Sequence record: PV287714.1
Direction: 5' to 3' (one strand)
Length of the DNA stretch: 64,000 nt
Source of the DNA: Escherichia phage HMD-9
Made by a program: the position numbers and the translations under genes
Notes under the pieces: generated by a model
Databases searched by the model: none
Told to the model about the DNA's origin: nothing
What the model saw: only the letters and a program-made list of their open reading frames with translations
Shown: positions 29,949-32,595 of the stretch, piece after piece
Layout: the number at the start of each line of letters is the position of its first letter
Position numbering within the stretch: position 1 is the stretch's first letter

Positions 29949-30545
29949 TTAATTACCACGGGCTGCATTAGCAACGGCATAAGCGTACTGAACATTAGCG
30001 TCTTTAAACATACCTTTAGAGGTGTCTATTTCTGCCTTAAAGCCGCCTTTAGCCATAACATCGGCAAATTCTTTACGGAAAGCCATTGCATCAAGACCTT
30101 TCCATGATGATTTGTGCTTGGCGAATTCAAGACCAGCGTAGTTGACAGCCTTAGCTAATTTATTATCAATAACCCATTTACCAGCTTTAGGCACAAACAC
30201 AGGACCTTTCTGTTTAGAGAACAGTTTTAAATTCCAGCGACGAAGGTCAAAGTCAGCTTTAACAAAAGCTGCGTCCAAGTTACTAGCAACAACATCTTCA
30301 ATATGAGCAAATTTAAGTCCGTCAACTTCAATATTTAGGTCGGTACGCCAGCGAAGTCCTTTCCAGGCGAAAGCTTTAAAGTCGGAAGCCTTTGTAGCTA
30401 AATACCGTTCAATAGGAGCTGTTTTAGCGTCAAAACCATTTCCTGGGTTGTCAACGCCGTTTCCTCGGTAAGTCCACTCATCTTTATTAATGCCTTGGAC
30501 CTTTCCTACAGAAGCTTCGGCGATAAATTCTTTATATGTTTTCAT
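29949..30545 (-). CDS. internal-protein-like, capsid-targeting N-terminus (IPIII-like size)
   Basis: 198 aa; N-terminal MKTYKEFIAEA matches the recalled T4 capsid-targeting sequence (MKTYQEFIAE). Confidence 0.7.
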   Translation of the reverse strand: MKTYKEFIAEASVGKVQGINKDEWTYRGNGVDNPGNGFDAKTAPIERYLATKASDFKAFAWKGLRWRTDLNIEVDGLKFAHIEDVVASNLDAAFVKADFDLRRWNLKLFSKQKGPVFVPKAGKWVIDNKLAKAVNYAGLEFAKHKSSWKGLDAMAFRKEFADVMAKGGFKAEIDTSKGMFKDANVQYAYAVANAARGN

Positions 30546-30598
30546 ACGGATTCCTTAAAGGTAAATATTTTAATTGGTATGTTCAAGTAACTGTAGAT

Positions 30599-30627
30599 AT
30601 ACTATCACAATTCTAGGAGATGTAAAC
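30599..30627 (-). promoter_or_regulatory. T4-type early promoter (GTTTAC-N17-TAGTAT)
   Basis: Reverse complement GTTTACatctcctagaattgtgaTAGTAT. Confidence 0.5.
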
Positions 30628-31026
30628 TTATTTGTAGGTTTTCATCCAATTCTTGAACAAAGCCACGACGTCTTTCTCTTTAACGTTCAGTTTAACGTCC
30701 AACATTTTACCACCAGCTGCTCTCGTTTGGCGAATCTTAGCAGTACCGGTTTCGCCATTCCACTCAACATAATATTGTCCAGCGTTCATTGCAATACCAT
30801 CGCCGTAGTCTTCATTTTTAGAAGTGGTGAAGGCCAGCTTCATAGTCTTAGAGACACGAGCCTGCATGCCTGTCTGAAGGGCATTACGAACGCGAATAAC
30901 CTGAGGAGTGGCCTGGGTCAGGTTCTCATTCAGTTCTTCAGTGAACTCTTCAGATTCAAACATAGCCAAAAGTTCTTTAGATGCAGGAATTACATTCTCT
31001 GCGATAAATTCTTGATACGTTTTCAT
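30628..31026 (-). CDS. internal-protein-like, capsid-targeting N-terminus
   Basis: 132 aa; N-terminal MKTYQEFIAEN. Confidence 0.7.
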   Translation of the reverse strand: MKTYQEFIAENVIPASKELLAMFESEEFTEELNENLTQATPQVIRVRNALQTGMQARVSKTMKLAFTTSKNEDYGDGIAMNAGQYYVEWNGETGTAKIRQTRAAGGKMLDVKLNVKEKDVVALFKNWMKTYK

Positions 31027-31056
31027 TTTTGTTTCCTTGTTTGTTTTGATAGAGTA

Positions 31057-31086
31057 ATTATACCATAATAATACTTAAGCGTAAAC
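31057..31086 (-). promoter_or_regulatory. T4-type early promoter (GTTTAC-N18-TATAAT)
   Basis: Reverse complement GTTTACgcttaagtattattatggTATAAT. Confidence 0.6.
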
Positions 31087-31089
31087 TGT

Positions 31090-31350
31090 TTAAGCTTTAC
31101 CGCCAGAAATAATTCCGAAGTTGTTAAAATCATATCCAATATCGTCAACATCTACTTTAGGGCTTGCTACAACATAAGCAATTTCACTACGTTTTGCATA
31201 GGTGTTTATTTCTCTACCATCGCCGCCTAGGAAAGAATACCCATTACGTTTTAATGAGCCAAAGTCTTCCGCATCACCAATGAAAGCTTTAACTTTAAAT
31301 TTAGGACCTTTGGCATCTGCTTCAGCGATAAATTCTTGATACATTTTCAT
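31090..31350 (-). CDS. internal-protein-like, capsid-targeting N-terminus
   Basis: 86 aa; N-terminal MKMYQEFIAEA. Confidence 0.65.
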   Translation of the reverse strand: MKMYQEFIAEADAKGPKFKVKAFIGDAEDFGSLKRNGYSFLGGDGREINTYAKRSEIAYVVASPKVDVDDIGYDFNNFGIISGGKA

Positions 31351-31356
31351 TTTTCC

Positions 31357-31770
31357 TTAGTAAATTGATTTACCATAGTATTTGTACCAAGTAGGACGTT
31401 GAGCAATTTTTTCGTCTAAGCGTGCTTGACTTATCGCAATGGACGCTTCGGACGGGACATAATTATTACGAAATTCGGCAGGGATGTCAGAAATATCCTG
31501 AACAGTCGTGTCCTTGATTTTGAAACCACGTTTCAAGCATTCAGCGATTAGCTCGATTTGACGTAAACGTAAAAATTCGAGTTTGTCGTAAAAGAATGTT
31601 ACGTGTCCTGTGCCTAAGATAAATGTTGGAGAGATTTTAAAATCCTTTACGCGTTTACCGTTTTTAACATGTTTACGGACTGCACCAAATACGCGTGGTA
31701 ATTCACGATACTCAGCCATAAGATGTTGGTCGGTCAGTTCAGAAACAAGTGTTAAATTGATACGAGTCAT
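31357..31770 (-). CDS. denV: endonuclease V (pyrimidine-dimer DNA glycosylase)
   Basis: [34 protein letters not shown]... matches recalled T4 DenV; ATG 31770 preceded by GGAGG. Confidence 0.9.
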
Positions 31771-31797
31771 AATTTCCTCCAAGTAGTTGATGAATGT

Positions 31798-31827
31798 ATA
31801 GTATCAAAACCCTTGGAGGAAGTAAAC
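31798..31827 (-). promoter_or_regulatory. T4-type early promoter for denV (GTTTAC-N18-TACTAT)
   Basis: Reverse complement GTTTACttcctccaagggttttgaTACTAT. Confidence 0.55.
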
Positions 31828-31828
31828 A

Positions 31829-32110
31829 CTATTTTTCTGAAGCGCCTGAAATATATTTTTCAAGACGTTGTTTCATCAGCGAGCCGTTCTTAGCGATTTC
31901 TTCCGGTTTATCACACATACGCAACAAGGCTTCAAGCTTAACGATATCGCTTGTACGTTCAAATTTGCGAGTATCTATCTTACTAGCAAGTTCAGAAATA
32001 CGTGCTAATAGACTTTCGGCTTCAACCAAAGCTGCACCTAGCTTAGTTGCAAATGTGTCAGTAGCTTCGTTAAGAATAGATTCTGATAAAAATTCACTAT
32101 ATGTTTTCAT
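31829..32110 (-). CDS. internal-protein-like, capsid-targeting N-terminus
   Basis: Start at [11 protein letters not shown]; ATG overlaps lysozyme stop (ATGA). Confidence 0.6.
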
Positions 32111-32595
32111 ATATACGCTTTCCAAGTTCCTGTTTTAAATGTTGAGATTACGCGTTTCGCGCGATTAGGTGTCTGACGATACCATTTAGATTGGGCTAGA
32201 TTTACTGCTGCTTCATCCCAGCGCTTTTGTTGAAGCATGCGTAAAGAATTAGTAAATCCTGCCACGCCGGTTTCTCCCATTTGGAAGACCATGTTAATCA
32301 ATGCACAGCGGCGAACAGCATCAAGAGAATCATAAACTGGCTTTAATTTAGCATTTCTCAGAATTCCGCGAACAGCAGCATCAACATCTTGATTAAAGAG
32401 TTTTTCAGCCTCATCTTTTGTAATTACACCATTGCAATTACGCCCAATAGCTTTATCTAATTCAGATTTGGCAACACTAAGTGATGGACTTTTAGTAAGC
32501 AAATGTCCAATGCCAATAGTGTAATAGCCTTCGGTATCTTTATAGATTTTAAGTCTAAGACCTTCATCTATACGTAACATTTCAAATATATTCAT
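32107..32595 (-). CDS. e: T4-type lysozyme (endolysin)
   Basis: 162 aa; [38 protein letters not shown]... matches recalled T4 lysozyme. Confidence 0.95.

Follow-up and report, generated by a model that had tools for sequence, protein, structure and literature searches.

A variable internal-protein locus between e and vs.8 in Escherichia phage HMD-9, probably rebuilt by recombination among T-even phages

The DNA described here is a stretch of 64,000 nucleotides (nt) from Escherichia phage HMD-9 (record PV287714.1), referred to below as the window, and all coordinates are positions in it. Between the endolysin gene e and a vs.8-like gene, the window carries four genes for internal proteins (IPs), namely ip93, ip86, ip132, and ipIII, as well as the DNA repair gene denV. 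The region is very probably the ipII/ipIII-type IP locus of a T4-like phage, located between the anchors e and vs.8 and rebuilt by recombination between co-infecting T-even phages. A locus of this kind is already known, being the variable IP locus of T-even phages built by the gene shuffling described for it, and the exact gene combination found here is new to the phage collections searched.

Rearrangement of the interval between e and vs.8

The window represents a Tequatrovirus (T4-like), and the nearest GenBank genomes are 94–97% identical to it over 24 kb around the locus. Coverage of positions 29800–32700, in turn, is at most 84% in any of 50,697 phage genomes, with the missing part being the ip132 segment. 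All genes of the locus are located on the minus strand, in the order nudE (33087..32632), e (32595..32107), ip93 (32110..31829), denV (31770..31357), ip86 (31350..31090), ip132 (31026..30628), and ipIII (30545..29949), followed by a hairpin and by the vs.8-like gene (from 29770), which is the other anchor of the interval. Homologues of T4 e, ipIII, and denV are found in this region, though arranged in an order unlike that of T4. Gene e, the upstream anchor, encodes an endolysin of 162 amino acid residues (aa) with 94% aa identity to T4 e, and the 198-aa product of ipIII is orthologous to T4 IPIII (89% aa identity, phrog_5341). The denV product is a pyrimidine-dimer glycosylase (137 aa, Pfam Pyr_excise), and its gene is itself a variable element. 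Each of the four IP genes begins with a 30-nt sequence coding for the T4 capsid-targeting leader (CTS), and three predicted early promoters, also on the minus strand, are interspersed between the genes: P1 (31827..31798), P2 (31086..31057), and P3 (30627..30599). The layout is e–ip93 (overlapping) / P1–denV–ip86 / P2–ip132 / P3–ipIII.

The interval was compared in nine GenBank loci and in those T4-like loci that a search of IMG/VR with the e protein brought up. The 34 loci having both anchors, a non-random T-even sample in which counts describe diversity and not frequencies, contain 27 distinct arrangements of the e-to-vs.8 interval, with zero to five IP genes and 11 payload families. Reading from e, T4 carries ipIII/ipII/denV, Lutter and 236Ecol005PP both carry ip93/denV/ip86/ipIII, PaulHMueller has ip93/denV/ip86/ip104/ipIII, F27 has ip93/ip86/ip132, UGJNEcP3 has ip132/ipIII/ipII/denV/ip99, and JS98 has ipIII/ip132/denV/ip99. 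A synteny comparison of this kind had been proposed in the first-pass annotation of the window, which read the cluster as cassette-wise gain of effector genes in a conserved backbone. Gene content is indeed not identical among T4-like genomes, and cassette-wise turnover is borne out by the number of orders, as well as by the identities between genera given below. The backbone drawn there included denV, which has to be moved to the variable set because it is absent from 5 of the 34 loci, varies in rank, and exists in several allelic forms (with 78% nt identity between the T4 and window genes).

Smaller variations are also present in the compared loci. In Lutter and UFV13 (L002 and L006), ip86 is annotated as two short overlapping open reading frames (ORFs), which suggests a frameshift, and in 236Ecol005PP the ip86 product has a different, longer C terminus (93 aa). 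The cluster representative nearest to the ip132 protein of the window lies in a further arrangement, e/ip132/ipII/denV/87 aa/ip99, seen on the Logan metagenome contigs L078–L080.

Exchange between genera is visible as a change of nt identity along the locus. The window is 97.2% identical to Dhakavirus UGJNEcP3 in ip132 and 94.1% in ipIII, with 62% in nudE, 73% in e, and 74% in denV. In comparison with Mosigvirus loci, ip93, denV, and ip86 are ~95% identical, with nudE at 63.5% and e at 81%. Overall, the cassettes share 93–98% nt identity with other genera, whereas nudE and e share 62–81%. In the Mosigvirus comparison, the identity rises from 60–80% to 98–100% at ~32260, within the last third of e. 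Additionally, ipIII is mosaic, with Dhakavirus-allele sites from 30545 to ~30204 (the 5′ ~340 nt) and Tequatrovirus-allele sites from 30183 on.

Differential loss alone would assume an ancestral long array of all IP genes and denV, with the present arrangements as its deletion derivatives and with no recent gain or transfer. Traces of deletion are found in F27 (L004, Escherichia phage vB_Eco_F27, Mosigvirus; 2434–3438), where only 9 nt from the start and 108 nt from the end of denV are left and P3 lies, as an orphan promoter, 110 nt upstream of vs.8; this locus looks like a window-type arrangement after deletion of denV and ipIII. L012, also without denV, has the same 169-nt gap as F27, and T4 repeatedly loses ipIII in the laboratory (10.1101/2022.04.14.488369). 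However, cassette identities of 93–98% between genera in which nudE and e are at 62–81% are impossible by vertical descent and loss, the identity step inside e and the mosaic ipIII are signatures of recombination, and the order differs between JS98 (ipIII/ip132) and the window (ip132/ipIII), which deletion cannot reorder. A history of loss alone is quite improbable. Judging from these sequences, gain and loss both operate at the locus, so that the gain of effector genes put forward in the first-pass annotation stands, although loss is equally evident, as in the denV remnant and orphan promoter of F27.

The joints through which T-even phages would recombine can be followed from locus to locus. 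The P2 leader segment (promoter, spacer, and Shine–Dalgarno (SD) sequence) is nearly identical before ip132 (window and F27), ip104 (W143 and PaulHMueller), and ipIII (236Ecol005PP, SP1, L012, and L016), and P3 precedes ipIII (T4, window, UGJNEcP3, and JS98), ip104 (L014), and denV (L013). Each payload occurs behind two to four different upstream sequences. Since nt 1–15 of the leader coding sequence track the upstream sequence and codons 8–10 (nt 22–30) track the payload, the switch point is located inside this 30-nt sequence. The idea that a promoter belongs to the gene that it drives was ruled out, as P2 and P3 remain attached to the end of the gene before them when the payload behind them changes. 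The unit between two leader copies thus carries the promoter of the next gene and not its own.

The cassette that sets the window apart from its closest relatives is that of ip132. In comparison with the 236Ecol005PP-type phages, the window contains a 452-bp indel (30546–30997) bounded by two leader copies. A segment of ~820 bp on the minus strand (~31010..30190), comprising the 3′ part of the ip132 leader, the payload, P3, and the 5′ ~60% of ipIII, is Dhakavirus-like and appears to be imported. The left crossover falls within nt 16–26 of the CTS coding sequence (~31011–31001), and the right one between 30204 and 30183, inside ipIII. The simplest reconstruction would be a double crossover between an e/ip93/denV/ip86/ipIII backbone and a Dhakavirus-like donor with ip132/P3/ipIII. 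More generally, the interval would be rebuilt by ordinary homologous and short-homology recombination of co-infecting T-even phages, across genera, with crossovers in the 30-nt leader coding sequence, in the promoter leaders, and in flanking or shared genes (e, ipIII). Rearrangement of T4 via microhomologies of 6–10 bp has been reported (10.1101/2022.04.14.488369). The cassette edges are not clean, with crossovers found also inside e and ipIII.

Leader-bearing genes and their joint with e

Four capsid-targeted genes around denV and e had been recognized in the first-pass annotation, and all four, ip93, ip86, ip132, and ipIII, are confirmed as minus-strand ORFs with the T4 CTS at the N terminus. 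A leader of ~10 residues with the consensus MKTYQEFIAE is present in each of them (MKMYQEFIAE in ip86, MKTYQEFIAE in ip132, and MKTYKEFIAE in ipIII). The prohead protease of T4 acts at the motif (I/L)-x-E, and such a site, with predicted cleavage, closes the leader as L-S-E in ip93 and as I-A-E in ip86, ip132, and ipIII. The 30-nt coding repeat of ip132 (31026..30997, minus strand) and its other copies (32110–32081, 31350–31321, and 30545–30516) are mutually identical at 21–27 of 30 positions, and beyond the leader the payloads are without detectable mutual similarity. All four Thr codons occur at leader codon 3, which argues for selection at the level of the peptide, and both ATC and ATT are used at codon 8; on the basis of these two codons, conservation of the leader mainly as DNA was ruled out. 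The codons AAA, TAT, GAA, and TTT of the leader are near-fixed, but this is confounded by the AT-rich codon bias at N termini.

The PHROG families matched by ip93 ("internal head protein"), ip86, and ipIII are those of internal head or virion proteins, and ip132 matches a family of unknown function. In Tequatrovirus and Mosigvirus, ip93 (496 records) and ip86 (217 records) are both widespread. The ip132 family is narrow, being represented in 49 records of the collection of 50,697 phages and by 17 clusters in a set of 5.8 billion proteins, and an exact-protein look-up of the ip132 product of the window gave no match on record. The leader is present in every aligned member of this family (11-sequence alignment). 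Outside the leader, no similarity of ip93, ip86, and ip132 was found in a comparison with the T4 IPs of ipII and ipIII. The predicted secondary structure of ip132 outlines an acidic disordered N terminus, a helix, five strands, and a C-terminal helix, an outline that is not functional evidence.

By analogy with T4 IPI–III, the products of the four genes are probably capsid-packaged proteins that are injected. They would enter the core of the prohead, be cleaved after Glu10 by its protease, and pass into the host together with the DNA, where they would neutralize first-line host defences. The 198-aa protein, given its orthology, would have the role of Ip3, and the products of ip93, ip86, and ip132 may likewise be injected anti-defence factors.

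Gene ip93 directly adjoins e. An ATGA overlap joining the fourth IP gene to the lysozyme stop had been noted before, and this overlap is real, with the ATG of ip93 at 32110–32108 and the TGA of e at 32109–32107 (gap −4); translation of ip93 may be coupled to e through it. The position 32125, given earlier as the end of the cluster, is that of an upstream in-frame TTG, whereas the leader ATG of ip93 lies at 32110. In Dhakavirus and several other Tevenvirinae loci (L005, L017–L020, L023–L026, L029, and L031), the last 14 nt of e (TATGAAAACYTATAA, C terminus AYENL*) double as the opening 14 nt of a gene with the leader. The slot is used by seven payloads that are unrelated, and the joint sequence is found on 17 IMG/VR contigs. 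T4 e terminates in TATAAAAATCTATAA, which resembles the joint in decayed form. In the window (32107–32125), the joint has the 4-nt overlap and an extra TATA, and e is shortened to its 162 aa, ending AYI*; this form is found on three IMG/VR contigs. A third geometry is that of the Logan contigs L078–L080, where ip132 begins 8 nt past the e stop.

No description of the 14-nt joint was found in the literature, in a search that was not exhaustive. We can tentatively suggest, while considering it rather unlikely, that a conserved "docking joint" for effector genes is formed by the sequence coding for the leader together with the 3′ end of e. If the joint and the 30-nt leader were kept partly because they favour the capture of cassettes across genera, the locus would amount to an integron-like acquisition system without an integrase, serving injected anti-defence proteins, and selection at the DNA level would act on top of the peptide requirement.

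In the whole window there are seven leader-bearing ORFs, all on the minus strand, and three of them are located outside this cluster. Two belong to a second IP locus (39661–40410), with genes at 40344..40072 (90 aa) and 40011..39703 (102 aa) and the leader in the variant form MKTFKEFINEA; the 30-nt early promoter GTTTACTTTTAGATAGGGTAGTGATACTAT occurs there in two identical copies, at 39661–39690 and 40042–40071. The 102-aa payload shares 46–50% identity with the ip99 family, whose place in Dhakavirus is within the e–vs.8 interval, and this likeness suggests exchange between the two IP loci. The third ORF, of 187 aa (36297–36860), carries the leader MKTYAEFLTEA, and the 95 nt before it contain no early-promoter motif; ORFs in the corresponding position of the IMG/VR loci L011 and L013 are 98% identical to it.

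Promoters and transcription of the cluster

The motif class of P1–P3 fits the early-promoter consensus TTTACW-N17-TAYWAT of phages PST and T4 (PMC4122927). All three follow the T4 early-promoter pattern (−35 GTTTAC(W), spacer 17 ± 1, −10 TAnnAT) and are co-directional with the genes. P1 (GTTTAC-N18-TACTAT) starts 1 nt past the ip93 stop and lies 57 nt upstream of denV; it was annotated as a promoter also by the depositor of phage Lutter. P2 (GTTTAC-N18-TATAAT) starts 3 nt past the ip86 stop and lies 60 nt upstream of ip132. P3 (GTTTAC-N17-TAGTAT) abuts the ip132 stop, 82 nt upstream of ipIII, and matches the motif before T4 ipIII. For both P3 and the denV promoter, matching motifs are found at the same positions in T4.

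These motifs, at 30599, 31057, and 31798, had been assigned in the first-pass annotation to three of the IP genes, with a −10 box TA(T/C)TAT. The motifs are present, although this box fits only the one at 31798, the others being TAGTAT and TATAAT. The assignment itself cannot be kept, as a promoter immediately precedes just two of the IP genes, ip132 and ipIII, and the motif at 31798 is that of denV and not of an IP gene. Nor does each gene have an early promoter of its own: ip86, which has none, begins 6 nt past the denV stop, with an SD sequence overlapping that stop, and the promoters follow the 3′ end of the upstream gene, the −35 boxes of P1–P3 beginning 0–3 nt beyond the preceding stop codon.

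The pattern GTTTAC-N16-18-TANTAT occurs nine times in the window against 0.23 expected, each time on the minus strand, which is a ~40-fold enrichment. It is hardly credible that the leader ORFs or the promoter motifs are products of chance or are non-functional, for example with the N-terminal motif as a repeated DNA element. In favour of such a reading, the locus of this phage is known from sequence alone, and a generic sigma-70 scan of the region, uninformative for T4 early promoters, found 23 sites versus 20.8 expected. Against it, the T4-specific motif is enriched on one strand and kept at matching positions across genera, the leader peptide is conserved while synonymous sites vary, the ORFs form families that are conserved over their full length across hundreds of phage genomes, and ipIII is orthologous to a T4 protein described in the cited papers as packaged and injected.

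Two T4 late-promoter boxes, TATAAATA (32629–32622 and 32616–32609, minus strand), lie just upstream of e at positions −34 and −21, the same as in T4 and its relatives. They are the only late-type boxes of the cluster, inside which neither a MotA-type middle promoter nor a late promoter was found in the scan. A GC-rich hairpin, AGGCCTATATTTAGGCCT (29946..29929, minus strand), is located 3 nt past the ipIII stop (z = −2.99), and the cluster contains no other terminator-like element. The cluster would then be a single co-directional unit that ends at this hairpin, with late transcripts from the two promoters before e reading through it. Through such read-through, IP mRNA would be at hand when proheads are assembled, and P1–P3 would add early transcription, with re-initiation inside the cluster at P1 for denV and ip86, at P2 for ip132, and at P3 for ipIII. 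The sole indirect hint of an early start is the report of T4 ipIII transcripts with a +1A start (PMC10468400), and the IP genes are without mention in a T4 multi-omics paper (PMC9697503).

Beyond the hairpin, the vs.8 gene of the window (29231–29883) is split into a 38-aa ORF (29883..29767) and a 179-aa ORF (29770..29231) with an ATGA overlap, whereas T4 has one ORF of 219 aa. In close relatives, the N-terminal part is in a different frame (MDNSCAMEW...). The 179-aa protein contains a Walker-A-like GGRQSGKST sequence and has a weak PHROG match to the terminase large subunit (E = 6.5e-6).

The promoters bear also on a dedicated mobility of promoter–stem-loop elements (PeSL), in which cassettes would be excised and integrated as small circles via these elements, possibly with a specific factor. 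This mini-circle mechanism was proposed and demonstrated in RB49/phi1 (PMC2839356), and in the window every intergenic joint has an early promoter, the hyperplastic region lies beside indels, and the direct repeats bounding the 452-bp indel are compatible with circular excision. However, when the 80 nt ending at each −10 box were folded, no stem-loop was found before P1, P2, or P3 (z = 0.42, −0.25, and −1.40, respectively), and no terminator-like site was found by the scan directly before them; each of their −35 boxes begins 0–3 nt past the preceding stop codon. The mapped crossovers, in turn, are located in coding sequence (leader, ipIII, and e) and not in a promoter or stem-loop, and for ip132 the best reconstruction is a double crossover involving a homologous donor in linear form. 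Mini-circles are therefore highly improbable here, and general homologous and short-homology recombination is favoured, since the stem-loop is missing and the crossovers lie in coding sequence.

Several points weigh against the proposed rebuilding of an IP locus by recombination between genera, in addition to the non-random sampling of the 34 loci. The transfer may have run from Dhakavirus to Tequatrovirus, in reverse, or from a third lineage. The P2–ip132 junction is present also in the Mosigvirus F27, at 93–95% identity, so that the event may predate this phage. For ip93, ip86, and ip132, packaging, cleavage, injection, and anti-defence activity are predictions by analogy; none of the four IPs falls into a Pfam family, PDB sequence searches with them gave nothing below E = 0.1, and the AlphaFold2 model of ip132 (11-sequence alignment) is unusable, with a predicted local distance difference test (pLDDT) score of 52.6 and a predicted template-modelling (pTM) score of 0.42. 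P1–P3 and the terminator are likewise predicted elements, and the late read-through is a putative one.

Comparison with known systems

In PMC2839356 and PMC4122927 (after Repoila 1994), T-even phages are described as having two highly variable IP loci that carry early-promoter elements. IPs are diverse defence-countering proteins with only the leader in common (PMC3012670), and the shuffling model was extended to T4 and PST by Comeau et al. (PMC4122927). The earlier cassette reading of the window is a rediscovery of this established picture (PMC2839356, PMC4122927, PMC3012670), and the view of T-even genome plasticity is unchanged by the present locus. In T4, Ip1, Ip2, and Ip3 are inhibitors of three distinct GmrSD type IV restriction enzymes (PMC12373910). 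For infection of strain ECOR17, T4 requires ipIII (10.1101/2022.04.14.488369).

IPs are the first phage factors that face host immunity, and GmrSD targets have been assigned for all three of those in T4. The products of ip93, ip86, and ip132 add three uncharacterised leader-bearing payloads, which are candidates for anti-defence screens. The locus also offers a clean worked example of the movement of effectors between phage genera, in which both crossovers can be mapped, one of them in the leader. For phage therapy and host-range prediction, the interval must be read directly and not deduced from the genotype of the backbone.

The closest counterpart is the e–ipIII–ipII–denV locus of T4, one of the two highly variable loci just mentioned, which shares with the window the position between e and vs.8, the 10-residue leader, the type of intergenic early promoter, an orthologous ipIII (89% aa identity), and the motif corresponding to P3 before that gene. 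The order, however, is e/ipIII/ipII/denV in T4 and e/ip93/denV/ip86/ip132/ipIII in the window, which is without ipII. Three payloads of the window are absent from T4, and denV is another allele (78% nt identity). Additionally, the first IP gene of the window overlaps the e stop, whereas in T4 the two are separated by P3.

In the PeSL cassettes (Arbiol 2010, PMC2839356; Comeau 2014, PMC4122927), as in the window, early promoters matching the consensus are combined with an SD sequence and an ATG at the joints of variable genes; the elements of the window adjoin indels or replacements in a hyperplastic region, and the same leader stands before unrelated genes. The three promoters of the window differ in being without the stem-loop or terminator half, and its mapped crossovers fall outside the promoter element, within shared genes and the sequence coding for the leader.

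The GmrSD inhibitors Ip1–3 have the same leader and the same locus, the 198-aa protein being the ortholog of Ip3, and the co-resident payloads are unrelated, as they are in T4. The payloads of ip93, ip86, and ip132, on the other hand, have no detectable similarity to ipII, to ipIII, or to solved structures. Finally, anti-defence islands such as anti-CRISPR loci (an analogy drawn in PMC12373910) also consist of small unrelated accessory genes at a fixed position, with rapid turnover and horizontal exchange. The products of the window differ from those of such islands in being probably delivered pre-made in the virion by means of a shared N-terminal leader; the coding sequence of this leader doubles as a crossover site, and the DNA repair gene denV is mixed in among the IP genes.

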